A DNA stretch of 64,000 nucleotides from an uncultured Acidobacteriota bacterium (lineage in GTDB: Bacteria; Acidobacteriota; Thermoanaerobaculia; Gp7-AA8): NCBI GenBank assembly GCA_963793695.1, contig CAWCBB010000008.1, forward strand, positions 6,833-70,832, read 5' to 3'. The notes under the pieces were generated by a model, which saw only the letters and a list, made by a program, of their open reading frames with translations, made no database searches and was not told where the DNA came from. Position numbers and translations under genes: made by a program. Position 1 is the first letter of the stretch. Every line of letters begins with the position of its first letter. Shown in pieces: positions 14,550 to 49,034 of this stretch.

Positions 14550-14680
14550 CAAATGCAAAATGCAAAATGCAGAATGCAAAATGAAAAATGCAGAAAGGGC
14601 CCGCGCGACGGTCAGGCCGCGCCCGGCGTGCTCTCGCCCGTTTTTGGACTTTTCATTTTGCATTCTGCATTTTGCATTCG
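14550..14680. repeat. heptamer array family A: inverted pair (AAATGCA)n ... (TGCATTT)n with a 40-nt GC-rich spacer
   Basis: The left arm caaatgcaaaatgcaaaatgcagaatgcaaaatgaaaaatgcagaaaggg and the right arm ccgtttttggacttttcattttgcattctgcattttgcattcg would form a stem of about 30 bp. Confidence 0.8.
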
Positions 14681-14697
14681 TGCGCGGAGCACACGTT

Positions 14698-14988
14698 CTA
14701 TGGGCCGTCATCCTGGCGCAGAACGACCACCGTCGCTCCCCACCCTCCGCCGCTGGCGTCGGCGTCGGCGTAGCTCTCGACGAACTCGAGGCGCTCGAGC
14801 AGGCTGCGGAGGATCCGCCGCTGCACCCCCATGCCTCTGCCGTGGATCAGCCGCACCTGCCGGAATCCCTTCGCCCGCGCCGCCTGGAGGTACTCGCTCG
14901 CCACATCCGCGACCTCGGCGGGACGGAACGGATGGAGGTCGATCGCGTCTTCGATCGGAATCTCGATCGGCTCGTCGGGGTCGCGCAT
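14698..14988 (-). CDS. Smr-domain protein, small and standalone
   Basis: [70 protein letters not shown] is the Smr signature (LDLHG...IHGKG). Confidence 0.7.
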
Positions 14989-15136
14989 GGGAGTGGGGGC
15001 GGCGATGATATCGTTCAGGAGCCGCAGGGGGAAGTCGTCCGGGGAAAGGGAGCTCTGGCACGGTCGCCGGTCCCGTTCCCATGCCCCCTTTCCCCTGACT
15101 ACGTTTCCCCGTCCACTCCAAGAGGAACCAACCCAG

Positions 15137-16127
15137 ATGACTACCCTTCTCGAAGAGCTCCAGCGCGTCGGGAGCTTCGAATATACGGCGGAGGACGCCC
15201 GGCGGTTCGAAGAGCTGCACGAAGAGATCCGCGCGCTCAAGAAGGAGCGGAACGCCGTCATCGTCGCGCACAACTACTACCGGCCCGAGATCCTGAAGGT
15301 CGCCGACTTCGTGGGCGATTCGCTCGAGCTCGCGCTGATGGCCTCGAAGGTGACCGAGGCCGACATCATCGATTTCTGCGGCGTCCACTTCATGGCGGAG
15401 ACCGCGAAGATCGTAAACCCCTCGAAGACGGTCCTCCTGCCCAACCTCCTGGCGGGATGTCAGCTCGCCGACTCGGCGCCTGCCGAGGACCTGGCCGCGA
15501 AGATCGAGGAGCTGAAGCGCGAGTATCCCGGACCTGGCCGTCGTCAGCTACGTCAACACGACCGCGGCCGTCAAAGCGCTCTCCACGATCATCTGCACCT
15601 CCGCGAACGCCGCGCGGATGGTCCGCTCGCTCCCGAACCGCAACATCCTCTTCGTTCCCGACCGCAACCTGGCGAACCACGTCGCCGAGCAGGTGCCGGA
15701 GAAGAACATCATTCCGTGGGACGGTTTCTGCTACGTCCATCAGCAGATCACGCCGGGAGAAGTGCAGCGGATCCGCGAGACCGATCCGGATCTGAAGGTC
15801 CTCGTCCACCCCGAATGCCGCCCCGACGTGGCGAGCCTCGCCGACGCGGTCCTCTCCACCTCCGGGATGGTCCGCTATGCGAAGGAGAACGAAGGGAAGC
15901 GCTTCCTCGTGGTCACCGAGTGCGGACTGTCCGACCGGCTCGCGATGGAAGTCCCCGAAAAGCAGTTCCTCAGGGGATGCCGCCTCTGCACCTTCATGAA
16001 GGTGACCACGCTCGAGGACGTCCGCGATTCGCTCAGGCACGTCCGGTACGAGATCGAAGTCCCCGAGCCGATCCGCGTCGAGGCGGAGCGGGCGCTTCGA
16101 GGGATGTTTCAGGTGGAGCAGCGATGA
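15137..16127 (+). CDS. nadA: quinolinate synthase A; one frameshift near nt 15530
   Basis: [20 protein letters not shown]...[28 protein letters not shown]...[13 protein letters not shown], then [15 protein letters not shown]...[11 protein letters not shown]...VHPECRPDV in a second frame. Confidence 0.85.
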
Positions 16128-16585
16128 GCGGCGCGCGGGCCGCGGAGCACGTGGAAGATCACGTTCCGCTCGAGGGGATCCGCGAGACGATCGAGATGGT
16201 CGTCTCGAGCCATGGAGGAGAAGTCCTCGATGTTTCGGCGCCCGACGCGGTCGCGTTCCGGCTGCCCGTCCGGCAGGGGATCGGCGCGAGCGGCGAGATC
16301 AGCGGGACGATCCGGTGGGAAGGAGATCCGGCGGACGGCGCGCTGCGCATCGTTTCGGACGGCGAGGTCACGCGGCCCCGGTGGTCGCACATCGCCATTC
16401 TCATCGCCGGGACCGTCGGCTCCCTGCTCTTCATCCTCTGGCCGTTCTACCCTGCGCTCGGTCCCGCCTCGTGGGTCGGCGGCGCGCTCGCCTTCGCGGC
16501 GTACTTTCTCACCCTTCGCCGTACCCACGGCGGCACCCTCGCGCGCCTCCTCGGCAACATCGCCGACGCGCAGAGGGAAGAGTAG
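16124..16585 (+). CDS. hypothetical membrane protein (153 aa); ATGA overlap with the nadA stop
   Basis: It sits in the open tail of the 14831-16585 ORF. There are two transmembrane helices ([41 protein letters not shown]). Confidence 0.5.
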
Positions 16586-16648
16586 AAACGTTCTTCGTTC
16601 TTCGTTCGTCGACAACGCCTCCGAGAACGGACCACCGCCCGCGACCGT

Positions 16649-18465: not shown

Positions 18466-18547
18466 AAACCGAGTACGCAGCGACCGGCCGGATGTTTACA
18501 GCGGGCGAAGAACGAAGAACGCCGAACGAAACGAAGGACGCTTCCCC

Positions 18548-20011: not shown

Positions 20012-20027
20012 GGATGGGATAGTGTAA

Positions 20028-20172
20028 TTGCAGATTGCAGATTGCAGATTGCAGATTGCAGATTGTTTTTCCTCCAAAGCGGCGATGGGACTTTGAGGAT
20101 CGGGCACCGATCAGTGATGATGGATGGGGTCGAGGGGTTTCAATCTGCAATCTGCAATCTGAGATCTGCAAT
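20028..20172. repeat. heptamer array family B: (GCAGATT)x5 ... 72-nt spacer ... (AATCTGC)x4
   Basis: ttgcagattgcagattgcagattgcagattgcagattg at 20028-20066 and caatctgcaatctgcaatctgagatctgcaat at 20141-20172. It lies between the GHL10 start (20011) and tRNA-Leu (20180). Confidence 0.8.
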
Positions 20173-20179
20173 CGAGACG

Positions 20180-20269: not shown

Positions 20270-20502
20270 AGACGAGTCTAGATCGCGAGTCTGCCAAGCA
20301 GTCAAGAGTCGAAGAGAATGAAGAATCTGGAGTCCGGGAGAGGATGATGAGCGGCGGTCCGCCGGCGGATTCGACGATCTGCACTCGGCAATCGTCATTC
20401 GGGCACGTGTGCTGGACCGATCATTCTGACATTCTGCAAAATTCTGCGAATGCGACCGGCGCCGCGGAGGCTCCCCGTCCGGCCCCCAGGAGGCACCTCT
20501 CG

Positions 20503-21682
20503 ATGAGCACCGAAGCCCGCGCCGGAACCGGCGCACCCCTCACGCTGCTTTCTGAAGAAGAGACGATGTTCCAGGAGAGCGTGCGGGACTTCGCGATCGA
20601 GAAGATCCGCCCGCTCGTTCACGACATGGACGAGAAGGCGACGATGGATCCCGGGCTGATCCGGAGCTTCTTCGAGCTCGGCGTCATGGGGATCGAAGTT
20701 CCCGAGACGTTCGGCGGGGCGGGATCGACGTTCTTCAACGCGGTCCTCGTCGTCGAGGAGCTCTCCCACGTCGACGCGTCCTGCGGCGTCCTCGTCGACG
20801 TCCAGAACACGCTCGTCAACAACGCCTTCCTCCGCTGGGGGAACGACGAGCAGAAGGCGCGCTACCTGACCAGGCTGACCCGCGACACGATCGGCGCCTA
20901 CGCCCTCTCGGAGGCCGGCTCCGGCTCCGATGCGTTTGCGCTCGCCACGCGCGCCCGCCAGGACGGCGGCGACTGGGTCCTCGAACGGGCAGAAGCTCTG
21001 GATCACGAACGCCGCCGAGGCGGGGGTGTTCATCGTCTTCGCCAACGCGAACCCCGATGCCGGGTACAAGGGGATCACCGCGTTCCTGGTCGAGCGCGAC
21101 TTCCCGGGCTTCACCGTCGGCAAGAGAGAAGACAAGACCGGCATCCGCGCCTCCTCGACCTGCGAGCTGATCCTCGACAACTGCCGCGTCCCGAAGGAAA
21201 ACGTCCTCGGCGAGGTCGGGAAGGGCTACAAGATCGCGATCGAGACGCTCAACGAAGGGCGCATCGGGATCGGCGCGCAGATGATCGGCGTCGCGCGGGG
21301 CGCCCTCGAGCACGCGATCGCCTACTCGAAGGAGCGCAAGCAGTTCGGCAAGCCCATCTCCGAGTTCCAGGGCGTCCAGTTCCAGATCGCTCAGGCGGCG
21401 ACCGACCTCGAGGCGGCCCGGCTCCTGGTCTACAACGCCGCGCGGCTCAAGGACGCCGGCCGGCCGTTCGTCCGCGAGGCCGCCATGGCCAAGCTCTTCT
21501 CCTCCCAGGTCTGCGAGCGCGTGACCTCCGTCTGCGTCGAGATCTTCGGCGGCAACGGCTACACCAAGGAGTACCCCGTCGAGAAGTTCTGGCGCGACTC
21601 GAAGATCGGCGCGATCTACGAAGGCACCTCCAACATGCAGCTGGCGACCATCGCGAAGACGGTGCTCACCGACAGGCTGTAG
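20503..21682 (+). CDS. acyl-CoA dehydrogenase (short/branched-chain type); one frameshift near nt 20985
   Basis: The start follows AGGAGG and reads [37 protein letters not shown]. The second frame reads ...[17 protein letters not shown]...[24 protein letters not shown]...IYEGTSNMQ. Confidence 0.85.
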
Positions 21683-22125
21683 GGAGCTCGCTGGGACCGG
21701 CTGCGCCGGTCCGTTTCTGGTGTGTCAACCGGCGCGGGAAACGGACCGCCACAGGCGGCCCCTCCACCCGGGCAAGAAAAATATTGCGAAATTCCTCACG
21801 AAAACCTACCATGAATTTGCCCATGAAAACCTGCGGTGCCCCTCCCGGTAATATGCGGACGTCCCGGTGGGTCTTCGTGTGCGCCTCGCGCGTCGTCATC
21901 GCTGAAGGCTCTTTGACATAGTCGACCAGTTCCCGCTCCTCCCCTCCACCCGGGGTGAGAAGGAGCGGCCGATCCGGTCCGCGGCATTCGGTGTGGTGGG
22001 TCACGTTGCTAGCGCGTGATACTTCGGTCGCGGGTCCGCCGGAAATACAAGGGGGAGGAGGTACTGCGTTCGATGAGTGATCACAAATCCAAGGAGGGTC
22101 GGAGTTCCTGACTCTCCTACCCCGA

Positions 22126-23019: not shown

Positions 23020-23035
23020 TGTGGAAAGCATACAG

Positions 23036-23248
23036 CGTTCTCCGTTCTCCGTTCTCCGTTGTCCGTTCTCCGATCTCCGTTCGCCGTTCTCCGCGGCACC
23101 TCCCCGCGCCCGCGCCCGAGCCCGGATTCTCTTTCAGTCCGGACGAAACCGCGTCCGAGGTCGCAGTCCACACGATCTGCCGCGGAGAACGGAGAACGGA
23201 CAACGGAGAACGGAGAACGAAGAACGGGGAACGGAGAAACGAAGAACG
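23036..23248. repeat. heptamer array family C: (GTTCTCC)x8 ... 89-nt GC-hexamer spacer ... (GGAGAAC)x9
   Basis: cgttctccgttctccgttctccgttgtccgttctccgatctccgttcgccgttctccg at 23036-23093 and cggagaacggagaacggacaacggagaacggagaacgaagaacggggaacggagaaacgaagaacg at 23183-23248. The spacer contains ccccgcgcccgcgcccgagcccgg. Confidence 0.85.
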
Positions 23249-25295: not shown

Positions 25296-27044
25296 TTATT
25301 TCAGCGGGTGAAGCCGTCGGGAGAGCTCGATTTTTTCGCGATCCAGCGCCTGCTCCCGCTCCCCGTCTCCAGCTTCGCGCATTGCCTTGATCTCTGAAGT
25401 GATTTCCTTCAGTCGGCGGTCCAGAAAGCGTCGCTCCATCAGACGGACGGTGTCTCCGATTGAATTTGGTGAGTCGAGCTCCTTCTCGTCAGGCGCGATG
25501 GCAAGTTCGGAGAGTCTCGTCAGCTGCGATTCCCCCCTAAGATCGGTCGCAATCACAGAAAAATCAAGGGGTTGGCCCTCGCGCGCCCGCTCGGCGACCG
25601 CTCGGAAGATCGACCGGCAGTCGGCGTCGTCGAAATACTCCTCCCGGAGGTCCGCCAGCTCGCGCTTCGGGTCGGCGGCGTGGAGCAGCGCCCGGAGGAC
25701 CTCTTTCTCCCCGGTGGAGACCGGCGCGACGACCCCCTTCTCCCGCGAGCCCGCGTCGGGACCTCCCCCCGTCCGGACGCGCGACCAGACCGACGAGAAC
25801 TCCAGCCCCATCCGGTCGGCGACGCGTTGCGCGGCGTCATTCCGGAGGACCGGGTCGGACACGGCCGCGACGAGAGGGACGAGCGCCTCGACGGCCTCGC
25901 TCTTTTCCGCGCCTCGCATCGCCGCGGGATTCGGGGCGATGCGCCGCAGCGCGAAGTCGAAGACGTCGTCCGCGTTGCCGAGCAGCTCGATGAACGCGTC
26001 GAGCCCTTTCTTCCGGAGGAAGGTGTCGGGATCCTCGGAGGCGCCGACGTCGACCACCTCGACCTGCAGCCCCGCCGACAGCAGGATCGGAGCCGCCCGG
26101 AGCGTCGCGCCGCGTCCCGCCTCGTCGCCGTCGTAGGCGACCACGACCCGCTTCGCGAGGCGGCGCATCATCGCGGCCTGGCCGGTCGTGAGCGAGGTCC
26201 CCATCGAGGCGACCACCCCGTCGATCCCGGCGTTGTCGAGCGCGATGCAGTCGAAATATCCCTCGACGAGGATCGCTCGATCGAGCCGCCGCATCGCGTC
26301 GCGCGCGCGATGGAGGTTGTACAGGAGCCGCGACTTGTTGAAGATCTCCGACTCGGGCGAGTTGAGGTATTTCGGGTCGCTCCCGTCGAGCGTCCGCCCC
26401 CCGAAGCCCACGATGCTCCCGCCCTCGGAGTGGATCGGGACGATCAGCCGGTTGCGGAACCGGTCGTAAAAGCCGTCGCCGCTCTTTCGCGGCAGGACCA
26501 GCCCCGCCTCCTCCAGCTGCCTGGGCTGGAACTTCCGCCCCAGCCGCTTGAGGATGTAGTCCCACGAATCGGGCGCGTAGCCGAACCCGTACTTCCGCCA
26601 CAGCTCGGGGTCCACCTCGCGCTTCGTGAGATAGCTTTCCGCCGCGTTCGGCGTCCAGCCCAGCGCCTGATGGAACGCGCCCGCCGCTTCCTCGATCGCC
26701 TCGAGAAGGTTCTCCTTCCCGCTCTCGGACGCCTTCTCCTTCCGGCGGGGGAGCGCGATCCCCGCGCGGGTCGCGACGTACTCGACGGCCTCGGGGAAGG
26801 TGTACCGCTCGGTCAGCATCACGAACTTGAAGACGTCGCCCCCCGTGCCGCAGCCGAAGCAGTAGAAGAACCCTTTGTCCCGATCGACGTGGAACGAGGG
26901 GGTCTTCTCGCGGTGGAAGGGACAGAGCCCCTTGTGGCTCTTCCCCGCCTGCTTCAGAGGCGTGTGCTGCGAGATGATGTCGACGATGTCCGCGGCGCCG
27001 CGCACCTGCGAGATGATCGCGTCATTGAGATCGACGAAGGCCAT
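25296..27044 (-). CDS. dnaG: DNA primase
   Basis: A clean 582-aa ORF with a Zn finger (CPFHREKTPSFHVDRDKGFFYCFGCGTGGDVFKFV), a TOPRIM domain (LVEGYFDCIAL...VVAYDGDEAGRGA) and a C-terminal helicase-binding domain. Confidence 0.9.
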   Translation of the reverse strand: MAFVDLNDAIISQVRGAADIVDIISQHTPLKQAGKSHKGLCPFHREKTPSFHVDRDKGFFYCFGCGTGGDVFKFVMLTERYTFPEAVEYVATRAGIALPRRKEKASESGKENLLEAIEEAAGAFHQALGWTPNAAESYLTKREVDPELWRKYGFGYAPDSWDYILKRLGRKFQPRQLEEAGLVLPRKSGDGFYDRFRNRLIVPIHSEGGSIVGFGGRTLDGSDPKYLNSPESEIFNKSRLLYNLHRARDAMRRLDRAILVEGYFDCIALDNAGIDGVVASMGTSLTTGQAAMMRRLAKRVVVAYDGDEAGRGATLRAAPILLSAGLQVEVVDVGASEDPDTFLRKKGLDAFIELLGNADDVFDFALRRIAPNPAAMRGAEKSEAVEALVPLVAAVSDPVLRNDAAQRVADRMGLEFSSVWSRVRTGGGPDAGSREKGVVAPVSTGEKEVLRALLHAADPKRELADLREEYFDDADCRSIFRAVAERAREGQPLDFSVIATDLRGESQLTRLSELAIAPDEKELDSPNSIGDTVRLMERRFLDRRLKEITSEIKAMREAGDGEREQALDREKIELSRRLHPLK

Positions 27045-27059
27045 GGCGAGTAGTCAGGG

Positions 27060-27437
27060 AGCAGTAGTCAGGGGGAAGGGTACAACGGACGAAATCGCCG
27101 TTGGAAACGGATGAAGCCGCGGCAGGATTTCGAGGGCTGGTTCCGGGCCTGCAGGTTGAAGCGATCCGACGTGACGGCTCCCTCACGGGGAGGCCGGAGC
27201 TCGCCTGGTGTCGGAATGGCGCGAAACTGCTATGCGCGTCAGCGCGCGATCGACTTCACGAGCGAACTCATTGCTGCGGTAGCGCTCCGCTCAAGATACC
27301 AGTCTGTCGCGAGCAGCAACTCGGCTCTCGCTGAGGGATGAAAGCTAACGCTTCTCTCTTGTTTCGATACCAAGCCCGTTCGTGTTCGATTTCGAAGGGA
27401 CAGCGCGCCTCTTCGAAGAATCGAAGACGCGGGCTCA
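27060..27437 (-). pseudogene. ParE/RelE-family toxin-like gene, badly frameshifted (multiple indels)
   Basis: The minus strand from ATGA at 27437 reads MSPRLRFFEEARCPFEIEHERAWYRNKREALAF.. Fragments such as AELLLATDWYLER and EILPRLHP resemble the ParE core and its ..EILRVLHGARD C-terminus. Coordinates are approximate. Confidence 0.35.
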
Positions 27438-27673
27438 TCGATCAGATCGGTAGAGCTGGGCGCGAAGCTCTTGCCAGGAGACCGTCTTCACGCGTCCTGC
27501 GTCGAAACTCAGCCATTCGGTTCTCGACCTCGGACTGCCCATGCCTGCTCGATCTCGTCGGTTGGTCCGCTGCCCTCGTCGAGACTTTCGAGAAGAAGCG
27601 CCTCAAGTTCCGCCCGGTCTTCGGGTGCCAGCTCCGATGCGCGTTCGTACAGGTCTTGGATCGCCCGGTTCAT
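27435..27673 (-). pseudogene. addiction-module antitoxin-like small protein (TIGR02574-type) with 2 frameshifts
   Basis: MNRAIQDLYERASELAPEDRAELEALLLESLDEGSGPTDEIEQAWA in one frame, .EVENRMAEF in a second, and DAGRVKTVSWQELRAQLYRSDR* in a third. The stop overlaps the downstream toxin-like ATG. Confidence 0.45.
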
Positions 27674-27853
27674 GCTCGCATTCTACTCGCGCGCTCGGAT
27701 GATCGGCCAGGCCGCCCAACGGTTTGCCGCTGAGCCGCGGCCACCGCGCGCGAGAAAGTATAGATCTCGGAAGGCAGTAACGCAGCGGTTGGCGCGCGGT
27801 GCAGCGGCCGAGTTCGACGCAATGGCCTTAAGGTAAGCGATGGTTTCGACGAC

Positions 27854-28073
27854 GATGTCATCCCGAGCCCTCACGTCGCGCTTCGCGCTCCTCAGGGCAG
27901 GCTCCGCGAGGGATCTGGGCGGGTGGGTTACGCGTGACGCGGCACCGAAGCACGGCGGCAGGATCGAGATTCGCCTGCGATCACGAAGCGAATGCCGATC
28001 CTGCCTGCCCTGCACCGGCGCCGCGTTCTTTCGCAGCCCCCGCCCAGATCCCTCGCGTACGCTCGGGATGACA
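27854..28073. mobile_element. second, inverted copy of the MITE-like element (termini GATGTCATCCCGAGC... / ...GATCCCTCGCGTACGCTCGGGATGACA)
   Basis: It has the same 28-bp termini as 12185-12366. The interior is about 70% similar (acgcgtgacgcgg...gcgaatgccg...ccctgcaccg.cgc.gcgttctt). Confidence 0.6.
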
Positions 28074-29164
28074 GCTTCGACGGGCAACTCGCGTTAAGTT
28101 AAGGCCATTGGAGTTAGACGGCGCCCACATGCCTCGTGGCCTCTTCGCGTCGGTTGAGATAAACAGCTACCGCAGGTAGAACCGACCAGGGCGAGAACCA
28201 CATAGAACATCGCTGAGATACCGGAATGACGACAAAGAGCTGCGTGACCGTAACCGAGATACAGGCCGCAGTAGAAGCAGTCGTACAGTGCAAGCGGCGC
28301 GCTGAGAGTTGCAGCGCCAGACCGAGCTCGCTCGCGAAACCGGGGCTGATTGGAATCGGAAGAATGCTGCCGGTGACCGCGCCGAAACGCTGCGTCCGGA
28401 ATCGCTTCTAACGGCGTGGGCACGGCATTTTGGCGGGCCGCGGCCCCTGCAAGCGATCGAGTTAGCGGTGACCTGCACTTCCCCTTCTCGGCCTCAGGAA
28501 GGCTCCCACGGAGTCGCGCACCGGTACCAATGGGGCGACGAAGAAGGCGGGAGCGCGTCGCCCGCAGCGCAGGATCGCCTGGAGAGCGCAGGGACTGCAG
28601 GCTGAGCCGCGATCCTCGCGGAGCCTCCCCGAGGGGCGGCACGATAGGCCGGCGACGGCGAAAGCATCTACGCGCGCTAGAACGCCGGTCGCAGCCACCA
28701 TGAAGCGCTCCAAACCGCGGAATACGGGAACGGAAGCGTGTAAACGGTCAGAGCAGAAGGCCACCGCAGCTCCGCCATCCTGGACCTGAGCGTTCACCTG
28801 CGCGATGGTGCCGGCAGCATAGGTGAGAAGCAAGGAGCCAGCGTCGCAGCTCAGCGTTCTGCCCGCCGGTCATGCTGCGCGAATTAGGCCGTCGTCTGGT
28901 CAGTGCGATTGGTCGGCCTGACTATTCATCCATGGATTACCGGGACCGAGGATATCTGGGACGAGTTGTGCCACGTGTATCCTCGGAGGCCCTGATTCGA
29001 AGATTCTACCGCTACCAGTTCAGCTGGTGAGGGTTCCGGTGGGGCGACGAGCTCGTCGTTCGGGTCTGTTCGGACCGATTCGGTCGCGTATCCCGTCGCC
29101 GGCGGAGCGGGCGCGGTGGGGCCGGGCAGTCGATCCGCCGGCCGCACTTCCCGGCCGCGGGTTC

Positions 29165-29292
29165 GTTCCTCACTTGCGTGTAGATCAGGTCGTCGTCAGA
29201 TCGGCGTGTCGAGAAGCTTCTGGACCGTCAGGATGTCGTACCGGTCCTCGTGTGCTGCGCGATGACGTCCTTCGGTTCGCGGAAAACGAGAG
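29165..29292 (-). pseudogene. tyrosine recombinase (phage-integrase family) C-terminal fragment, 5'-truncated and frameshifted
   Basis: The minus strand reads ..GRHRAAHEDRYDILTVQKLLDTPI* and, one frame over, DDDLIYTQV. This matches the ..RHTfA..L...G.DI.TVQ.LLGHsd..TT.IYTHV box II/catalytic Tyr region. Nothing upstream, because the mutS2 stop is at 29315. Confidence 0.4.
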
Positions 29293-29294
29293 GC

Positions 29295-29317
29295 CGGGCG
29301 CGCGCAGCGCGCCCCTA
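29295..29317. repeat. REP-like palindrome GGGCGCGCGCAGCGCGCCCCTAC, overlapping the mutS2 stop codon
   Basis: An exact 23-mer, also at 46844-46866 and, reverse-complemented, at 1908-1930. Confidence 0.7.
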
Positions 29318-31681: not shown

Positions 31682-31727
31682 GAGTCGGGAGTCGGGAGTC
31701 TGTCGGGAGTCTCGAGTCGAAAGTCTT
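31682..31727. repeat. family D heptamer array (GGGAGTC)x4-5 abutting the mutS2 start codon
   Basis: gagtcgggagtcgggagtctgtcgggagtctcgagtcg. On the mRNA strand this is (GACTCCC)n immediately 5' of ATG, with no canonical SD. Confidence 0.75.
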
Positions 31728-31893
31728 GAGCCGGAGCGAAGTCTACGACACGTAGGGCCGCGTTGCGCGCGGCCGCTCTCCGGTCGGATCAGGATCTAAA
31801 CCCGGGGGAACGACCGCACGCAGTGCGGCCCTACGGGCAAAAGCAAACGGACCCCAGATGCGGGGTCCGTTCAGAGATTCGCTGTTCGCGGGA

Positions 31894-33006: not shown

Positions 33007-33105
33007 GATCGTCGTTGATCGTTGATCGTAGATCGCTAAGTGAAGAAAGAGAGGTTGCCGGGGCAATGACTGCAAGACCGACGATCGAAACAAACGACCA
33101 ATCGA

Positions 33106-35064: not shown

Positions 35065-35099
35065 CGAGTTCAGTCTAACGGAACGCCGCCTGCGGCGGC

Positions 35100-35215
35100 G
35101 AAATGCAAAATGCAGAATGCAAAATGTAAAGTCCCCAAAGGCGGTCGCCGGGCGGTCTCCTTTTTGGATTTTTCATTTTGTATTTTGCCCGGGTCCGAGA
35201 TCCGAGGTCCGAGGT
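35100..35215. repeat. heptamer array family A inverted pair (AAATGCAAAATGCAGAATGCAAAATG ... CATTTTGTATTTTGC), followed by (TCCGAGR)x3
   Basis: The arms are at 35100-35135 and 35157-35188, and tccgagatccgaggtccgaggt is at 35191-35215. It is intercistronic, 35 bp upstream of the squalene-synthase-like start and just after the oxidoreductase stop. Confidence 0.8.
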
Positions 35216-35230
35216 GCATTTTTCTTCTGA

Positions 35231-36409
35231 TCACGAGGCCGGCCCGAGCGGCGGAACCTTCATGTGCGTGTCCCGCGCCCGGCACCAGTGCGCGCCCGGC
35301 TTGTGCTGGCACGAGCCCCTCTGTCGCCAGAGCGCGCGCACCACGGGCGCCGCGAGCCGCTTCCACCAGCGGTCCTGGTGCCACGCGGAGAGATACGCGT
35401 TGAAGTCCTTCGCCTTCGCCGCCTGCCGCACGAAGGACGAGAGGCCGAAGTTTCCGCCTCGCTCGTAGAGAAAGCGGTTGACGAGGCTCGTCCGCTGCTT
35501 CGCGCCGAGCTCGGCTTCCCACAGCTCGTCGAACGAGCGCTCCTCGAGGATCGATCGCGCGGCGAGCCACCCGCTCTTGAGCGCGTAGCGGATGCCGAGG
35601 CCGAAGAGGTAGTCCTGAAAGCCGGCCGCCTCGCCGGCGTAGCGGGCGTTGCCCGAGACCGCCGTGCTCTTGAGGTGGAAGTTCATGTACGAATAGCCGG
35701 TCTTCCGGTCGCGCCCCAGCTCGACGGCGCGGATGCTCTGCGCGCGCGCGAGCGAAGCGTCGAAGTACTCGTCGATCCGCTTGAAGTCGGACACGATCGC
35801 GCAGCCGAACGTCCCGACCCCGTCGAGGATGAAGAGGTACGAGTAGCCGCCGGGGGAGAGGCGGTGATCGAAGTAGACCTCGACGCGCTCCTGCTCGTCG
35901 GACGAGAAGGTGATCTCCTTGGCCAGGCCGTCGGGACTCGCCGGGCCGGTGGCGACGATGTCGGCCTCTTCGGGCTCGAGCCGGCTTCCGAACCGGACGT
36001 CGACGCCGAGGGCCCGGGCCTGCGCGAGAAGGCCGCGGTCGAGCGAGCCGTCGAAGGGGCCGCGGCGGATGAAGAAGCCGTACGGGGTCGCCGCCTTCAC
36101 CTCGTGCGGCGTAGGGGCGGCCTGCGGCCGCCCGGAACCTGGGTCGAGCGACGGCGCGTAGAAGCGCGCTTCGGTCACGGGGCGGAAGTAGAAGTTCCGC
36201 TCGATCCCGATCCGGTCGAGGAAGGCGCGGACGTCCTCCGCCTCCGACGAGTTCTCCAGGATCTGGAGGTCGCCGATGAAGCGCGCGCCGACGTCGCTCT
36301 TCGCCTCGTGGACCTCGACGCGCCGTCCGCCGCGCGCGAGCGTGATCGCCGCGGCCAGTCCCGCCGGCCCGGCGCCGGCGATGCGGATCGGATCGAGGGA
36401 GCTTGTCAT
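35231..36409 (-). CDS. FAD-dependent oxidoreductase (geranylgeranyl-reductase-like family)
   Basis: MTSSLDPIRIAGAGPAGLAAAITLARGGRRVEVHE (a Rossmann GxGxxG fold), clean. Confidence 0.75.
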   Translation of the reverse strand: MTSSLDPIRIAGAGPAGLAAAITLARGGRRVEVHEAKSDVGARFIGDLQILENSSEAEDVRAFLDRIGIERNFYFRPVTEARFYAPSLDPGSGRPQAAPTPHEVKAATPYGFFIRRGPFDGSLDRGLLAQARALGVDVRFGSRLEPEEADIVATGPASPDGLAKEITFSSDEQERVEVYFDHRLSPGGYSYLFILDGVGTFGCAIVSDFKRIDEYFDASLARAQSIRAVELGRDRKTGYSYMNFHLKSTAVSGNARYAGEAAGFQDYLFGLGIRYALKSGWLAARSILEERSFDELWEAELGAKQRTSLVNRFLYERGGNFGLSSFVRQAAKAKDFNAYLSAWHQDRWWKRLAAPVVRALWRQRGSCQHKPGAHWCRARDTHMKVPPLGPAS

Positions 36410-38283: not shown

Positions 38284-39345
38284 ATGCCGAGCGCGCACAC
38301 CGCAGCAACGCAGCCCGCGATCCGGGTCCCCGCACCGCGTCCCGGCCGGGAGCCGCTGCTCGAGATCCGCGGACTCCGGACCTCGTTCTCCACCGACGAG
38401 GGGCTCGCTCACGCCGTCGACCAGGTCTCGTTCGCGATCGGCCGGGGTGAAGCGGTCGCTCTCGTGGGAGAGTCGGGCTCCGGCAAGAGCGTCACGGCCC
38501 TCTCGATCATGGGCCTTCTCCCTTCCGCGGGACGGATCACCGGCGGGGAGATCCTCTTCCGCGGCAGGGATCTCGTTCCCATGCCGGAGAAGGAGATGAT
38601 GAAGATCCGCGGCGACGACATCGCGATGATCTTCCAGGAGCCGATGACCTCGCTCAACCCCGTGTTCACGGTCGGCAACCAGGTCGCGGAAGCGATCCGG
38701 ATCCACCGGCACGTGGGAAAGAAGGAGGCGAGGCGGCAGGCCGCGGAGATGCTCGACCTGGTCGCGATCCCCGATCCCCACAAGAGGCTCGACGACTATC
38801 CGCACCAGATGTCGGGAGGGATGCGCCAGCGCGTGATGATCGCGATGGCCCTCTCGTGCAATCCCGATCTGCTGATCGCGGACGAGCCGACGACCGCGCT
38901 CGACGTCACGATCCAGGCGCAGATCATGGAGATCCTCGCCGGCCTCCAGCAGAAGCTCGGCCTCGCGATCCTCCTCATCACGCACGACCTCGGCGTGGTC
39001 GCCGAGTTCTGCGAGCGCGTCATCGTCATGTACACCGGACGCATCGTCGAAGAGTCGCCGGTGCACGCGCTCTTCGACGATCCCAGCCATCCCTACACGC
39101 GCGGCCTTCTCCGCTCGCTGCCGAAGCTGAACGAGTCGGAAGGCGAGCGCTCGCGGCTCGAGACGATCGCCGGCATCGTCCCGCCGATCACCAATCTCCC
39201 GAAGGGATGCAAGTTCAACACGAGGTGTCCCGACGTCATGGAGATCTGCTACGGGCTCGAGCCCGCGCGGATGATGGTCGGCGAGGACCACGACGCGCGC
39301 TGCTACCTCCACGGCGATCTCGCCGATCCGGAGAGGTCCGAATGA
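38284..39345 (+). CDS. oligopeptide/dipeptide ABC transporter ATP-binding protein (OppD/DppD-type)
   Basis: [26 protein letters not shown]...[10 protein letters not shown]...[12 protein letters not shown]...[11 protein letters not shown]..., plus the C-terminal oligopeptide_C domain. Confidence 0.85.
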
Positions 39346-40454
39346 GCCTGATGGCCCCCGACCAGGCTGCCCCCGCGGGAGACGCCCAGGGTCCCCCGGG
39401 GAGCGGGGGAGCCGCTTCTTCTGGTCCGCGACCTCCGGAAGTACTTTCCCGTGCAGCGCGGCCTTCTGGCGCGCACCGTGGGCCAGGTCAAGGCGGTGGA
39501 CGGCGTCACCTTCGCGATCGCGCGCGGCGAGACCCTCGGGCTGGTCGGCGAGTCGGGCTCGGGGAAGACGACCGTCGGTCGCTGCATCCTCCGTCTCATC
39601 GAGCCGACCGACGGCGAGATCTCCTTCGACGGCGCGGACGTCCGCGCGATGGGAGATCGCGAGCTCCGGCGGCTGCGGCGACACATGCAGATCGTTTTTC
39701 AGGACCCGTACGGGTCGCTCAACCCGAGGATGACCATCGGCGACATCATCGCGGAGCCGCTCGTGATCCACGGCAACGGCAACCGCGCGGAGCGCCGCGA
39801 TCGCGTCGCCGAGCTCCTCCGGAAGGTCGGGCTCGACCCTGACTACCGGAAGCGCTACCCGCACGAGTTCTCGGGAGGGCAGCGCCAGCGCATCGGCGTC
39901 GCCCGGGCGATCGCGACCAGCCCCCGAAGTTCCTCGTCCTCGACGAGCCGGTCTCCGCGCTCGACGTCTCCGTCCAGGCGCAGGTCGTCAACCTCCTGCA
40001 GGACCTCCAGGCGGAGCTCGGGCTCACGTACCTCTTCATCGCGCACGACCTGGCCGTCGTGGAGCACATCTCCACGCGCGTCGCCGTCATGTACCTCGGG
40101 AAGATCATGGAGCTGGCCGGCCGCGACGATCTCTACCGGGACGCGCTTCATCCCTACACGCAGGCCCTCCTCTCGGCCGTGCCCGTGCCCGATCCACGCG
40201 TCAGGAAGACGCGGATCATTCTTCGGGGCGACATCCCGACCCCGCTTCGCCCCCCGACCGGCTGCGTCTTCCACACCCGCTGCCCGATCGCCCGCTTCCC
40301 GATCTGCTCCGACGAAGTCCCCCCTCTGCTCGAGCATCGCCCGGCCCAGTTCGCCGCCTGCCATTTCGCGGGAGAGAAGGTGCCGGAGGTGAAGGAGCTG
40401 TCGGCCGAGGGGCGGGAGGGGCACGTCGAGGGGGCGGGCGTGCCGAAGGCATGA
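39342..40454 (+). CDS. oligopeptide/dipeptide ABC transporter ATP-binding protein (OppF/DppF-type); frameshifts near nt 39400 and 39915
   Basis: [59 protein letters not shown], and LVLDEP...[25 protein letters not shown]...HPYTQALL, in three frames. Confidence 0.8.
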
Positions 40455-40457
40455 TCA

Positions 40458-40582
40458 AAAAAATGCAAAATGCAGAATGCAAAATGAAAAATACAAAAAG
40501 GGCGTGATGCTCACGTCTCGCAGGAAAGCCCCGATTCCCTCCTCTTTTTGTGTTTGACATTTTGCATTTTGCATTCTGCATT
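40458..40582. repeat. heptamer array family A inverted pair
   Basis: aaaaaaatgcaaaatgcagaatgcaaaatgaaaaatacaaaaaggg ... cctctttttgtgtttgacattttgcattttgcattctgcatt, between oppF and the tolC-like gene. Confidence 0.85.
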
Positions 40583-40795
40583 GGGCCGCCGAAGGCGGTC
40601 GTTCGCTTTCAGCGCCCCCCTCCACCCGCTACAATGTCGCCGGCCCCGGTTCCGGCCGCGAAACTCTTCCATTCGTTCGTCGTATCCCGTAAAGGAAGTC
40701 CGCTCCCCCATCGGAGCGGCGTTTCACGGCCGCCGCGCGGGTCGAAACCGAAACCTGCCGGATGGGTACAAAGGCTCGGTCCAGGAGGAACTTGC

Positions 40796-44581: not shown

Positions 44582-44590
44582 AGGCGTTTC

Positions 44591-44717
44591 CCGTTCTCCG
44601 TTCTCCGTTCTCCGGAAACCAAGGGCCTCTGGCGTGCGTACAGGAGAATGGACGAAAAGCCGGGCCCGGGCCCGGGCGCGGGTGGGGGCGGAGAACGAAG
44701 AACGGAGAACGAAGGAC
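44591..44717. repeat. heptamer array family C inverted pair (GTTCTCC)x3 ... (GGGCCC)n spacer ... (GAGAACG)x4
   Basis: ccgttctccgttctccgttctccgg, a spacer with gggcccgggcccgggcgcgggtggggg, then gcggagaacgaagaacggagaacgaaggac. It lies between the macA-like and macB-ATPase genes. Confidence 0.8.
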
Positions 44718-44734
44718 GCCTCTCCAGGAATGAC

Positions 44735-45550: not shown

Positions 45551-45567
45551 TAGACTTCCAGACGCGC

Positions 45568-46794
45568 ATGTTCTCCGAAAACCTCAAGATCGCGCTCAAG
45601 GCCCTCTGGGCCAACAAGATGCGCTCGATCCTCACGACGCTGGGGATCATCATCGGCGTCGCGTCGGTCATCGCCGTGGTCTCGCTGGTTCAGGGGATGG
45701 AGCACGGCATCGCGACCGAGCTCGAGGGCGTCGGCGCGACCTACATCCGGGTCGTCCCCGACGCCGGCGAGCAGCGGAACACCTTCAACCCGAAGATCCC
45801 CTCTCTCACGTACGACGACGGCGTCGCGGTCCTGAACGGGTCGCCGGAGATCGTCGAGTTCACGCCGATCTTCTTCCGCAACGCCGAGCTGCGGATCGGC
45901 GACACGCGCCACTCCGCGACCATGCTCGGCGTGAGCGAGTCCTACCAGGACGTCGTGAACCACTGGGTGGACCGCGGTCGTTTCTTCACGCCGCTCGACA
46001 TCGCCGAGAAGAAGCGCGTCGCCACGATCGGCATCGAAGCCGCCCGGAAGCTCGGGATCGGCGACGAACCGATCGGGAAGCTCGTCCGGATCGAGGGGAA
46101 CGCCTTCACGATCGTCGGCACGATGGAAAAGAAGGGCCAGATGTTCGCGCAGGACCAGGACGACCTGGTCCTGATCCCCTTCACGACGTCGAGCGCCCTC
46201 TACGGCCCCGAGGCCGTGCGCACGCTGATCCTCGACTTCCAGGCGGCCTCGGCCAGCTCGACCGACCTCGCCCGCGAGCAGATCCGGGACATCCTCCGCT
46301 CCCGCCACGGCCTTCGAAAGGAAGAGCAGAAGGACGACTTCCGGATCGTCCTCCAGGAAGAGATCCTCGAAGCCGTCGGCAAGGCGCTCATGATGACGTC
46401 CCTCATCATGGCCGCGATCGTCGGGATCGCGCTCCTCGTCGGCGGCATCGGCATCATGAACATCATGCTGGTGTCCGTCACCGAGCGGACGCGCGAGATC
46501 GGCGTGCGGAAGGCGGTCGGCGCGCGGCGGCAGGACGTCCTGCTGCAGTTCCTCATCGAGGCGATCGCGCTCTCGGGACTCGGCGGGGTGGTCGGCATCG
46601 GGCTGGGCGTGGGGCTCGCCATGGCCGTCCGCCAACTCCTCACGAAGTGGGTCACCTTCCCGCCCGTCCACACGCCCCTCTGGGCGATCGTCCTCGCGTT
46701 CACCTTCTGCGGCGCGCTGGGGATCATCTTCGGGATCTATCCCGCGGCCAAAGCCTCGAAGCTCGATCCGATCGACGCGCTCCGCTACGAGTAG
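45568..46794 (+). CDS. MacB-type ABC transporter permease (FtsX family)
   Basis: MacB periplasmic domain plus 4 transmembrane helices. ...GIGIMNIMLVSVTERTREIGVRKAVGA... Clean. Confidence 0.85.
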   Translation: MFSENLKIALKALWANKMRSILTTLGIIIGVASVIAVVSLVQGMEHGIATELEGVGATYIRVVPDAGEQRNTFNPKIPSLTYDDGVAVLNGSPEIVEFTPIFFRNAELRIGDTRHSATMLGVSESYQDVVNHWVDRGRFFTPLDIAEKKRVATIGIEAARKLGIGDEPIGKLVRIEGNAFTIVGTMEKKGQMFAQDQDDLVLIPFTTSSALYGPEAVRTLILDFQAASASSTDLAREQIRDILRSRHGLRKEEQKDDFRIVLQEEILEAVGKALMMTSLIMAAIVGIALLVGGIGIMNIMLVSVTERTREIGVRKAVGARRQDVLLQFLIEAIALSGLGGVVGIGLGVGLAMAVRQLLTKWVTFPPVHTPLWAIVLAFTFCGALGIIFGIYPAAKASKLDPIDALRYE

Positions 46795-46821
46795 GGGCGC
46801 CCTGCGGGCGCCGCGGCCCTG

Positions 46822-46900
46822 CGGAGAACGAAGAACGAAGAACGGGCGCGCGCAGCGCGCCCCTACGATGACGAAATCGGTCTTGCCGATTTCGTCATTT
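46822..46900. terminator. composite 3' region: a GAGAACG heptamer array, a REP-like palindrome (46844-46866) and a perfect 11-bp hairpin GACGAAATCGG-tcttgc-CCGATTTCGTC
   Basis: It lies between the convergent macB permease (+) and efp (-) genes. gcggagaacgaagaacgaagaacgg is adjacent to the REP. Confidence 0.5.
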
Positions 46901-47452
46901 GGCCCGCTCGATGTAGCTGTTGTCGCTCGGGTCGATGATCAGCTCCGTTCCCTCGTCGATGAACGGGGGAACCTGGACCACGATCCCGTTCTCGAGCGTG
47001 GCGGGCTTGTACGAGGCGGAGGCGGTCGCCCCCTTCACGAGCGGCTGGGTCTCGGCGACCTTCGCGCGGATCGTCTTCGGCAGCTCGACCCCGATCGGCC
47101 GCTGCTCGTAGAACTGCACCTGGAGCTTGAGACCCGGAGAGAGCCACTGCGCCGCCGGGCCGAGGTCCTGAGCGGAGATCTCGACCTGCTCGTAGCTTTC
47201 CGTGTTCAGGAAGTGATGGGCCGCCGCGTCGGAGTACATGTGCTCCATCTCGTGGGTCTCGATGAACGCCTGTTCGATCGTGTCGCCCGACCGGAACCGA
47301 TGCTCGAACTGGTTTCCCGTCCGGAGATTCCGGAGCTTCGCCTGAACCATCGCGCGAAGGTTTCCGGGGGTGTGATGGCGGAACTCCATCACTTTGCACA
47401 GGTCTCCGTTGAACAGGATCACCATGCCGTTGCGAAGATCGTTTGCCTGCAT
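46895..47452 (-). CDS. efp: elongation factor P
   Basis: MQANDLRNGMVILFNGDLCKVMEFRHHTPGNLRAMVQAKLRNLRTGNQFEHRF..., 185 aa, clean. Confidence 0.9.
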   Translation of the reverse strand: MQANDLRNGMVILFNGDLCKVMEFRHHTPGNLRAMVQAKLRNLRTGNQFEHRFRSGDTIEQAFIETHEMEHMYSDAAAHHFLNTESYEQVEISAQDLGPAAQWLSPGLKLQVQFYEQRPIGVELPKTIRAKVAETQPLVKGATASASYKPATLENGIVVQVPPFIDEGTELIIDPSDNSYIERAK

Positions 47453-47658
47453 CGGTCAGCCCTTCTTTTCTGAGGTTGCGCGCCGCGCGCGGCGGCCACC
47501 CACGTCCGTCGCGCCAAACCGGCGCGGAGAAGGAGGTTATTCCGGGTGGCATCGGACGCGGACCCTGGGACCGATGGGGCGGATCGGTCTGGCGTCCTCA
47601 TGAGGAGGAAGCTGGCATCCTTCCGGTGACGCCCGTTACGCGACTTCGGCGGGGACGC

Positions 47659-47664
47659 GCTACA
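47659..47664 (+). promoter_or_regulatory. candidate -10 hexamer (TACAAT) in the divergent efp/pilT intergenic region
   Basis: cgcgcTACAATcctcg, about 60 nt upstream of the pilT GTG start. No clean -35 was found. Confidence 0.2.
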
Positions 47665-47722
47665 ATCCTCGTAACTTTCCAGCGTATTTTGGGCCAACAA
47701 CGGAAACATCCGAGGTGATTCG

Positions 47723-48903
47723 GTGCACATCAACGACCTTCTGAAGATCGCCGCCGAGCGGCGCGCGTCCGACCTCCACATCAAGGTCGGCTCCCATCCC
47801 GTCATCCGCGTCGACGGCGAGCTGATCCCGCTCGTCGAGCTCAAGCGCCTCATGCAGGAAGACACCATCGCGATGGCGTTCTCGATGATGTCCTCCCGGC
47901 AGAAGGAGAAGTTCAAGAACAACTTCGAGATCGACTTCGCCTACTCGGTCCCCGGCCTCGGCCGGTTCCGCTGCAACATCTTCCAGCAGCGCGGCACGGT
48001 CGGCCTCGTCCTCCGCGTCATTCCCGGTGAAGATCAACTACGATCCGCGAGCTGATGCTCCCGAACATCCTCGAGAAGATCTGCGAGGAGCGGCGCGGGC
48101 TGATCCTCTGCACCGGGACGACGGGCTCGGGCAAGTCGACCACGCTCGCGGCGATGATCGACTACATCAACTCGCACCGCACCGAGCACATCATCACCGT
48201 CGAGGACCCGATCGAGTTCCTCCACCGCGACAAGAAGTCGATCGTCAATCAGCGCGAGGTCGAGGTCGACACGAAGAGCTTCTCGCAGGCCCTCCGCTCG
48301 GCCCTCCGCCAGGACCCCGACGTCATCCTCGTCGGCGAGATGCGCGACTACGAGACGATCGAGACGGCGCTGACCGCCGCCGAGACCGGCCACCTCGTCC
48401 TCTCGACGCTCCACACCCTCGACGCGACCGAGACGATCAACCGCATCATCTCCGTCTTCCCGCCGCACCAGCAGAAGCAGATCCGCCTGCAGCTCGCGGC
48501 CGTCCTCAAGGCGGTCGTCTCGCTCCGCCTCCTCCCGCGCGCGGACGGTCTGGGCCGCGTGCCGGCGGCCGAGGTCCTGATCAGCACGAACTACATCCGG
48601 GACTGCATCGAGAACAAGGAAAAGACGAAGCTGATCAAGGACGCGATCACGCAGGGGACCTCGCAGTACGGGATGCAGACGTTCGACCAGTCGATCTACA
48701 CGCTCTATCGCAACGGCCTGATCACCCTCGACGAGGCGCTGCGCCGCGCCACGAACCCGGACGAGTTCAAGCTCAAGATCCAGGGCGTCCAGTCGACCTC
48801 CGACATTGCGCGCGAGGAGATGGACGGGCAGCTCAAGGTCGCCTCCGACAACGATCCGTTCAGCGAGGAGTCGCCGTTCGATTTCGGGAACCAGCTGCCG
48901 TAG
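47723..48903 (+). CDS. pilT: type IV pilus twitching-motility ATPase PilT; one frameshift near nt 48030
   Basis: GTG start after GAGGTGA. MHINDLLKIAAERRASDLHIKVGSHPVIRVDGELIPL... Second frame: LILCTGTTGSGKSTTLAAMIDYIN...VEDPIEFLHRDKKSIVNQREV...MQTFDQSIYTLYRNGLITLDEAL. Confidence 0.85.
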
Positions 48904-48933
48904 GGCAGCTGGTTCCTGAACGCGCCTGCGGCG

Positions 48934-49034
48934 CAAATGCAAAATGCAAAATGCAAAATGAAAAATACAAAAAGGGGCTGATGCCATAATCCCCCTTTTG
49001 GACTTTTCATTTTGCATTTTGCATTTTGCATTTG
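48934..49034. repeat. heptamer array family A inverted pair with a near-perfect 40-bp stem and a 13-nt loop
   Basis: caaatgcaaaatgcaaaatgcaaaatgaaaaatacaaaaagggg ctgatgccataat ccccttttggacttttcattttgcattttgcattttgcatttg, between pilT and recX. Confidence 0.9.

Follow-up and report, generated by a model that had tools for sequence, protein, structure and literature searches.

The DNA analysed here, a 64-kb window from a Thermoanaerobaculia (Acidobacteriota) genome with a GC content of 0.63–0.70, carries four AT-rich palindromes of the form (AAATGCA)n…(TGCATTT)n, which we call family A. All four lie where an earlier note, made from the sequence alone, had placed them, in intergenic gaps; we redrew their boundaries to 14548–14681 (A1), 35098–35188 (A2, with an additional displaced outer arm piece at 35216–35234), 40459–40583 (A3) and 48933–49036 (A4). 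Pfam confirmed the note's guesses at the flanking genes: A1 separates genes for a small GTPase and an Smr protein, A2 an NAD-binding oxidoreductase gene and an SQS_PSY gene (hpnD), A3 an oligo_HPY ABC ATPase gene (oppF) and an OEP gene (tolC), and A4 a T2SSE (PilT-like) gene and recX. Each of these gaps lies between co-directional genes. Arrays were called with Tandem Repeats Finder (TRF), chance expectations came from shuffles, structure from predicted RNA folds with z-scores, and annotation from Pfam, Rfam 15 and ARAGORN. The source genome was read over these 64 kb only, and copy counts are counts within the window.

The order of left arm, loop and reverse-complement arm holds at all four loci, although the right arm of A2 is broken by a nested array. 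In A1, a degenerate CAGAGAC flank directly precedes the A-rich left arm with its alpha-type inner end (14548–14599, plus strand; the arm types are defined below); a GC-rich core follows (14600–14637) that forms its own sub-hairpin and, read on the minus (transcribed) strand, is succeeded by the U-rich arm in a terminator-like arrangement; the T-rich right arm (14638–14681, plus) is then followed by a small GC hairpin, GTGCGCGGAGCAC, at 14680–14694. A2 opens with a small GC-hairpin flank, GCCGCCTGCGGCGGC (35086–35100), continues with a beta-type left arm, a short core (35142–35158) and the inner part of an alpha-type right arm (together 35101–35188, plus), is split by a (GGTCCGA)3, or equivalently (CCTCGGA)3, array (35189–35217, plus) where the orthologous arm in a relative, L120, is contiguous, and ends in the displaced outer arm piece with its TCTTCTGATCA flank (35216–35234, plus), in which TGA, read on the reverse complement, ends the oxidoreductase gene as its stop codon. 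A3 consists of a TGATCA flank, whose TGA is the oppF stop codon, with an alpha-type left arm (40452–40502, plus), a variable core (40503–40543), and a right arm (40544–40583) that together with the small GC-hairpin flank GGCCGCCGAAGGCGGTC and its T-rich tail (40544–40600, plus) is terminator-like on the transcribed strand. A4 has a small GC-hairpin flank, GCGCCTGCGGCGC, and an alpha-type left arm (48922–48977, plus), a loop of 13 nt (48978–48990), and a right arm with a GTCTTCTGAT flank (48991–49043, plus) that overlaps the recX ATG at 49042. The inner arm end reported for all copies, AAAATGAAAAATACAAAAAGGG, is exact in A3 and A4 and present as variants in A1 and A2.

The arms far exceed chance expectation. 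With up to two mismatches allowed, the arm 14-mer AAATGCAAAATGCA occurs 27 times in the window, exclusively in A1–A4, against 0.01 expected in shuffles. TRF returned period 7 for all eight arms, with 6.0, 4.3, 5.6 and 5.4 units in the left arms of A1–A4 and 3.7, 3.9, 4.1 and 5.4 in the right arms, such that every arm contains at least three head-to-tail 7-nt units, as in the short tandemly repeated repetitive (STRR) sequences of cyanobacteria. As inverted repeats, the arms match over 41 nt at 90% in A1, 39 nt at 87% in A3 and 50 nt at 90% in A4; terminal inverted repeats of the kind found in MITEs (miniature transposable elements with inverted repeats) are thus present, 87–90% complementary over 39–50 nt. 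RNA folding predicted stable hairpins for A1 (−71.1 and −72.3 kcal/mol on its two strands; z −8.6 and −8.4), A3 (−54.2 kcal/mol; z −7.0) and A4 (−57.1 kcal/mol; z −9.4). A2 folds more weakly, at −39.3 kcal/mol on the plus strand (z −3.6) and −26.3 kcal/mol (z −1.6) on the minus strand from which it is transcribed. At gathering score, Rfam 15 found only a tRNA-Leu in the window, and the family-A elements match no known structured RNA.

Homologues of HpnD assign the window to Thermoanaerobaculia within the Acidobacteriota. Comparison with relatives was made on syntenic contigs, given here with their HpnD identity (L118 and L119, 97%; L120, 84%; L121, 83%; L122 and L123, 75%) and on two recX contigs (L178, from the same metagenome-assembled genome, or MAG, as L120, and L179); a search of metagenome contigs for recX relatives found none. 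Aligning 16 arms from eight elements in five gene gaps (A1–A4 and, from L120 and L121, the copies at hpnD and at mutS2) revealed a number of shared features: firstly, a master arm of ~45 nt, (C/A)AAATGCA AAATGCA (G/A)AATGCA AAATG(A/T)A AA(A/G)T(C/A)CA AAAAGG; secondly, two inner arm variants, alpha (ATGAAAAAT[A/C]CA) and beta (ATGTAAA[G/A]TCC), which are paired with each other within most elements and so produce recurring stem mismatches; thirdly, two recurrent flank motifs, (T)GATCAGAAGA, which in A2 and A3 supplies, with its TGA, the stop codon for the gene upstream, and the small GC hairpin GCCGCCGCAGGCGGC, which the mutS2 copies lack, having local sequence beside the arm. An element of ~100–150 bp thus reads TGATCAGAAGA-type flank, A-rich arm, core, T-rich arm and, mostly, a small GC hairpin, with inner ends AAAAAGG(G)-core-(C)CCTTTTT, and it occurs in both orientations relative to transcription. 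Because the master arm, the alpha/beta pairing and the two flank motifs recur, A1–A4 are, by their sequence, paralogues of one discrete, asymmetric element. The proposal of a structured repeat family, dispersed through intergenic DNA, whose arms are conserved and whose centre varies is therefore borne out by the master arm and flanks common to the 16 arms.

Family A is not special in its architecture. By the same criterion that found no arrays of periods 8–11, the window contains 22 period-7 arrays (0.5 in shuffles), which belong to three main and several minor unit families and are all intergenic, except for one arm that overlaps the end of the recX open reading frame (ORF). Besides family A, the units are ATTGCAG/CAATCTG, CGTTCTC/GAGAACG (with CGTTCTT), TCGTTGA, GACTCCC and GGTCCGA, and the inverted pairs among these fold at −51 to −87 kcal/mol. 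Several of these families (ATTGCAG, CGTTCTC, CGTTGAT, GACTCCC) and 8–9-mers in the relatives share the architecture of family A, and the relatives draw on the same unit repertoire as the window.

Orthologous gaps stay occupied while their units turn over. Across 13 syntenic gaps, the occupied gaps coincide between genomes, with units that are sometimes the same and often different, and arrays recur in corresponding gaps of the window, L120, L121, L122, L178 and L179; gaps that are empty in one genome are empty in all, including the divergent murJ/oxidoreductase promoter gap. The unit is kept at the ABC/MFP, rpoD/next and oxidoreductase/hpnD gaps. At the last of these, a family-A hairpin is present in the window, L120 and L121 and absent from L122, and the closest relative has a different inverted array of 9-nt period beside a short family-A arm remnant. 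An extra family-A copy lies in the S21/mutS2 gap of L120 and L121, between a canonical S21 terminator and the mutS2 start, where the window has a GACTCCC array. Family A occupies the tolC/oppF and recX gaps in the window only; L120 has an inverted (GGAGTCTAG)n pair with ~60-nt arms between tolC and oppF. At recX/alaS, the (TTGCAGA)n pair of the window corresponds to an (ATGCAGA)n pair of equal polarity in L178, a difference of one substitution per unit. ATGCAAA, ATGCAGA and TTGCAGA thereby form a series of single substitutions carried along entire arrays, and since the recX/alaS pairs differ by one such step, the ATTGCAG family is placed two unit-wide substitutions from family A. Unit number and identity vary at orthologous gaps; the retained A2 and mutS2 copies keep their unit count. 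L122-like relatives have few heptamer arrays.

Arms and cores evolve differently. Between orthologues, arms are 83–100% identical and cores 46–62%, compared with 55–63% at four-fold degenerate sites of hpnD and a background nucleotide identity of 81–86%. Judged against the four-fold sites, the core drifts at about the neutral rate and is free; the arms are thus under constraint or under continual homogenisation. One change is compensated between the arms: G–C to A–T, between L120 or the window and L121. Moreover, the L121 core is the reverse complement of the core of L120 and the window (score 22.5–23, against 12.5–15.5 in direct orientation) and the arm variants have changed places; the centre has therefore been inverted by exchange between the arms.

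The search in other genomes that the earlier note had recommended found further matching arrays. A 26-nt arm pattern has more than 117 matching stretches in genomes of many phyla (among the 80 matches listed, all are MAGs), and the inverted-pair form is common among the matches in Acidobacteriota, Gemmatimonadota and Planctomycetota. These cross-phylum matches are probably not one element. Exact three-unit arrays of AAATGCA and of two composition-matched control heptamers occurred at 27, 18 and 9 loci of viral contigs, and the fetched loci contain 91 canonical units; with control heptamers nearly as frequent in viral contigs and so many units in use, we rejected a single cross-phylum mobile element as the default. 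Among the viral contigs (L124–L150), many exact (AAATGCA)n arrays lie in contigs of giant-virus MAGs (GVMAG), some of which have up to five arrays, so that heptamer arrays are not confined to bacteria.

The pairs have a polarity. Among AAAATGC pairs, which come from many phyla, the A-rich arm comes first in 25 of 26, and of the 44 inverted pairs of any unit outside the window, 37 have the A-richer arm at the 5′ side (37 A-first, 7 T-first), counts taken over loci that the array search itself collected, in a strand-symmetric manner, and that include a few orthologous pairs. Only the A-first order yields a hairpin followed by a U-run on both strands. Three of three CGTTCTC pairs of this lineage are pyrimidine-first, and we dropped a general rule that all array pairs are A-first since these are reversed. 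Of the gaps that hold A-type pairs, 17 are tandem, one convergent and two divergent, according to a crude gene caller for the foreign loci that was revised after open frames ran through arrays and is still rough. A scan for the terminator consensus flags, on the transcribed strand, only A1 (minus) and the GC-hairpin flank of A3; the matches in the cores of A2 and A3 are antisense. The full family-A hairpins are closed or followed by GCAUUUU units. The possibility that the AT-rich arms act as promoters was dropped when a sigma-70 scan found no promoter-like site in or near the elements.

The reading we favour, though we give it only about even credence, is that family A is a palindrome similar to repetitive extragenic palindromic (REP) sequences and bacterial interspersed mosaic elements (BIMEs) but made of heptameric simple sequence repeat (SSR) arrays, shaped by slippage, arm copying and inversion, and serving as a terminator or 3′-end hairpin when transcribed. 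Slipped-strand replication would add, remove and homogenise units, and templated copying from arm to arm, or gene conversion, would keep the arms matched, as the compensatory changes and the slow evolution of the arms suggest. Recombination between arms would flip the centre, as seen in one orthologue, and copies would occasionally be duplicated into new gaps. Family A shares this behaviour with the other inverted tandem-array palindromes of the lineage, which occupy most non-promoter intergenic gaps. Transcribed from either strand, an A-type copy is predicted to form a hairpin of 30–45 bp whose 3′ arm is a series of GCAUUUU units, giving a stem and then U-runs; at the boundaries of genes and operons, such a hairpin would, in either orientation, bring about factor-independent termination or attenuation and hold off 3′ exonucleases. 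Pairs of the CGTTCTC type have no U-run, and their hairpins would serve only for stabilisation or processing. Part of the DNA-level behaviour is shown by the comparisons, namely inversion, compensatory change, turnover and nesting; the RNA-level role we infer from the polarity, the placement and the ties between arrays and terminator tails: the T-rich tails of two canonical GC hairpins, one downstream of efp and the other at 12488–12506, are single arrays.

Several observations weigh against this reading, beginning with the fact that termination and stabilisation are inferred from sequence patterns. Several copies lie 0–36 nt from the downstream start codon, which would leave little room for a promoter if termination were efficient, and the L120/L121 copy behind the canonical S21 terminator would be superfluous as a stop signal. 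There is no enrichment in convergent gaps (1 of 20 by the crude gene caller). The CGTTCTC-type pairs, one of them inside an efflux operon, have the same architecture and distribution with the opposite polarity, so termination alone cannot explain the architecture. Copies have decayed or been replaced in close relatives; the window's own A2 is decaying on its transcribed strand (z −1.6) and is replaced in the closest relative, which argues against strong selection at that site. Finally, the conservation of arms between paralogues exceeds what a hairpin needs, and a protein that recognises their sequence may be involved.

The main rival, which we consider unlikely, is a non-autonomous mobile element akin to MITEs or REPINs, with arms recognised in trans by a transposase, for example a REP-associated tyrosine transposase (RAYT) or another IS200/IS605-type Y1 enzyme acting on single-stranded hairpins, and with any effect on RNA incidental. 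It would account for the 45-nt master arm, stem mismatches and flanks that unrelated gaps share in either orientation to transcription, for arms conserved far past the neutral rate around a free core, and for presence that varies between genomes (the S21/mutS2 copy in L120 and L121 only, the tolC and recX copies in the window only). The variant ATACA is confined to A3 and A4 and suggests a recent copying event, an array is nested inside the A2 arm, and the genome also holds GTAG-tagged, REP-like palindromes. The likeness to REP, BIME and MITE elements that the earlier note had seen stands as far as a palindromic, dispersed repeat is concerned; against mobility of the MITE or RAYT kind stand several negatives. 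By inspection of the flanks, no target-site duplication is visible around any of A1–A4 beyond the two flank motifs; the arms, which begin (C/A)AAATGCA between TGATCAGAAGA or GCCGCCGCAGGCGGC flanks, do not bear the GTAG/CGTC tag of REPs; and no transposase family turned up in Pfam scans of ~40 ORFs, all from the window. Internal sequence, which MITE copies share, is unrelated among the paralogues (and 46–62% identical among orthologues). No clean empty site was found, the alternative alleles carrying other arrays instead. Five or more other unit families have this architecture, and substitutions that run along whole arrays fit SSR dynamics better than many separate MITE families; the control heptamers, about as common as AAATGCA in viral contigs, point the same way.

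We think it quite improbable that the copies are dedicated, selected bidirectional intrinsic terminators, in which GCAUUUU repeats behind a growing stem would give RNA polymerase several chances to terminate in a GC-rich genome. The A-first excess (25:1 for AAAATGC pairs, 37:7 for all pairs), the inner ends AAAAAGG(G)-core-(C)CCTTTTT, the copies directly 3′ of stop codons, the conservation of the arms and a conserved −10-like box that tolC possesses for itself downstream of A3 all speak for this reading. Like such terminators, family A can be read as an A-tract, a GC-clamped hairpin and a T-tract on both strands, after stop codons. Its stems, however, are 30–45 bp and mostly A–U, compared with 8–16 GC-rich pairs in the canonical terminators of this genome, a difference that, together with the copy downstream of the S21 terminator, upholds the earlier view that these are not ordinary terminators. 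The unenriched convergent gaps, the redundancy with a canonical terminator, the close downstream start codons, the loss or replacement of copies in close relatives and the opposite-polarity families of the same architecture count against it, and the terminator-like sub-hairpins of A2 and A3 lie on the non-transcribed strand.

A more far-reaching proposal, a long shot in our estimation, is that paired heptamer arrays are the product of an active mechanism, common to many phyla, that builds long hairpins at gene boundaries; a dedicated enzyme or binding protein that copies, homogenises or recognises the arms would account for their conserved sequence, and the period would follow from polymerase or RNA polymerase geometry (7 nt) and the polarity from termination (a U-run behind the stem). 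If so, there would be a new class of repeat-generating or repeat-propagating system in place of passive slippage, and the excess of heptamers in bacteria would be explained. It is very unlikely, in turn, that the arrays serve a sequence-specific protein that binds DNA or RNA in a 7-nt register (on RNA perhaps one of the cold-shock or OB-fold type, on AT-rich DNA perhaps a nucleoid protein), with the hairpin secondary: arms are conserved beyond the needs of pairing among paralogues and orthologues and form AT-rich islands in 67% GC DNA, and CspB is reported to bind heptamer repeats, one protein per heptamer (PMC4679880), but the 91 canonical units in the fetched loci replace each other in equivalent gaps and no single site sequence is kept. 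An assembly or sequencing artefact (adapter or vector concatemers, or fold-back errors of long reads) has practically no chance of being right and was rejected, for although the window is rich in frameshifted genes, as error-prone long-read assemblies are, the elements are strictly intergenic, the independent NCBI (L120), JGI (L121) and Logan assemblies hold them at orthologous sites, and the genome scan found matching arrays in MAGs built with different assemblers.

Inverted heptamer arrays are not new. The statement that no described element matches fails, since published work describes inverted heptamer pairs for Xanthomonas (PMC4692102) and repeats of heptamers for cyanobacteria and Beggiatoaceae (PMC4679880). 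Both papers cite Mrazek (2007) for heptamers as the most over-represented long SSRs in many bacteria and for polymerase slippage as a suggested cause; they trace the heptamer excess to 2007 and STRRs to 1990. The closest analogue is in Xanthomonas, where each genome has 183–186 GGGAATC arrays, nearly all of them intergenic and 70–75 convergent (inverted) pairs included (Rehm et al., 2015; PMC4692102), mostly transcribed, lying mainly in co-directional gaps, and keeping position and pair type between species. Family A resembles these in being pairs of same-unit arrays, convergent, close together and intergenic, in a GC-rich genome, capable of forming stem-loops, mostly between co-directional genes and rarely between divergent ones, with position and pair type kept while length varies. 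It differs in phylum and in its unit: GGGAATC is G-rich and was studied as a G-quadruplex former, whereas AAAATGC is AT-rich and has no G-tract. The Xanthomonas report describes no shared master arm with flanks, arm asymmetry, core inversion or replacement of units at a fixed gap. The cyanobacterial STRR and TAACTGA repeats (PMC4679880) are likewise dispersed intergenic heptamers, with a few favoured units in each genome and a distribution over distant phyla; direct arrays predominate among them (of 170 sets in BOGUAY, one is inverted), unlike the paired palindromes with a core seen here, and TAACTGA arrays, unlike family A, lie just upstream of start codons and contain stop codons.

REP, BIME and REPIN sequences of E. 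coli and Pseudomonas, as outlined in PMC3116915 and PMC3733652, are also short, imperfect intergenic palindromes, often in operons or at their ends, with conserved stem mismatches, both orientations, and proposed roles in termination or mRNA stabilisation. REPs are 20–40 bp, GTAG/CGTC-tagged and tied to RAYTs, and their stems are not tandem arrays; the arms of family A are untagged tandem heptamers of 35–50 nt. Bacterial MITEs (Correia/NEMIS, ERIC, RUP) share with family A a length of 100–200 bp, multicopy intergenic placement, terminal inverted repeats and RNA hairpins that may affect termination or processing, but MITE copies have common internal sequence and target-site duplications, while the centre of family A is unconserved, no duplication was seen and the number of arm units varies.

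New here are therefore the lineage and its AT-rich unit, the discrete and asymmetric form of the element, the contrast in rate between arm and core, the flipped core, the occupancy of gaps with unit turnover, and the polarity rule. The lineage offers a dense, tractable case, with about half of the intergenic gaps holding array palindromes: gaps stay occupied as units turn over, arms evolve more slowly than four-fold sites, cores drift and centres flip, and the A-first, terminator-type polarity extends to other phyla. Should the RNA-level role be true, these palindromes would constitute a major unannotated layer of operon punctuation in Acidobacteriota.

Arrays are also a source of miscalled ORFs. 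They have no stop codon in any frame, and ORF calls are extended or created over them as a result: a 38-aa 'gene' was called over the hairpin in L121, and the recX ORF of the window (49042–49587, 181 aa) runs on into the ATTGCAG array, compared with 164–165 aa for RecX in relatives.

The remaining arrays of the window are distributed as follows. An (ATTGCAG)n/(CAATCTG)n inverted pair at 20025–20173 (−74 kcal/mol) lies in a divergent gap between the start of a minus-strand gene and the tRNA-Leu gene, and a (TTGCAGA)n/(CAATCTG)n pair at 49544–49661 lies between recX and alaS, where L178 has (ATGCAGA)n/(TCTGCAT)n. A single (CAATCTG)n array (12446–12506) abuts a canonical hairpin and T-run (12488–12506) in an intergenic spacer, upstream of where a minus-strand gene has its 3′ end; the ORF on the left is doubtful, which makes the convergent arrangement of this gap uncertain. 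(CGTTCTC)9/(GAGAACG)9, with arms of 61 nt, occupies 23033–23248, downstream of the canonical rpoD terminator (23319–23284, minus strand), and the orthologous site in L120 has a CGTTCTC unit too; a second (CGTTCTC)n/(GAGAACG)n pair (44585–44723; −86.6 kcal/mol) sits within a gene cluster for an MFP-ABC-FtsX efflux system. The GC-rich hairpin 3′ of efp has a (CGTTCTT)n array as its T-rich tail (46821–46862, minus strand). Another (CGTTCTT)n array, at 16587–16612, has its inverted partner, (CGAAGAA)n, 1.9 kb away at 18506–18528, with a whole gene and no short core between them. A (GACTCCC)n array at 31676–31703 is directly upstream of mutS2, in the gap that holds a family-A hairpin in L120 and L121, and a (TCGTTGA)n array at 33009–33036 corresponds to other units in L118 and L120 and to an inverted TCGTTGA pair in L121. 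In the relatives, inverted arrays of 8–9-nt units (GGAGTCTAG, GGCGTCTGG, GGTCTAGG, CCGATGGGA) reach arm lengths of ~120 nt (L120, 4175–4601; L122, 11521–11864; L179, 270–420; L118, 930–1010); the 9-mer GACTCCCTA resembles the heptamer GACTCCC with two additional nucleotides.

Two further kinds of palindrome occur. GTAG-tagged, REP-like palindromes (GTAGGGGCGCGC...GCGCCCCTAC; cgtagggccgc...gcggccctacg), at 1908–1983 and ~31760–31850 of the window and ~290–365 of L178, are a REP family of canonical look, separate from family A in the same genome. A second dispersed palindrome with 38-nt arms (GATGTCATCCCGAGCGTAGCGAGGGATC...) has two copies in the window, at 12185–12366 and 27847–28082, and similar motifs in L038 and L016. 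One copy of the GATGTCATCCCGAGC palindrome is carried by a ~2.3-kb segment between mutS2 and dnaG (27044–29315), where L120 has 142 nt and L122 344 nt; checked for a mobilising enzyme, the ORFs of this segment gave no Pfam match.

Several housekeeping genes are split over reading frames, namely pilT (47723–48903), alaS (49660–52202), nadA (15618–16127), an acyl-CoA dehydrogenase gene (20344–21921) and oppF (38856–40454), which suggests indel errors of long-read assembly or else pseudogenes; with so many frameshifts in the window, homopolymer lengths in its arms are perhaps slightly off. ARAGORN called a 'tRNA-???' with a 4-base anticodon at 26072–26165, inside the dnaG coding region; Rfam gives this call no support and it is probably spurious. 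Conserved −10-like boxes lie downstream of elements at ~35070–35078 (minus strand) and ~40630–40640 of the window and at orthologous sites in L120, L121, L118 and L122; the one downstream of A3, ahead of tolC, reads GCTACAATG / GCTAGAATGG. Upstream of hpnD, TAGACT stands 7 nt ahead of the ATG in four relatives, with CAGACT in L122, a spacing from which the hpnD mRNA may be leaderless.

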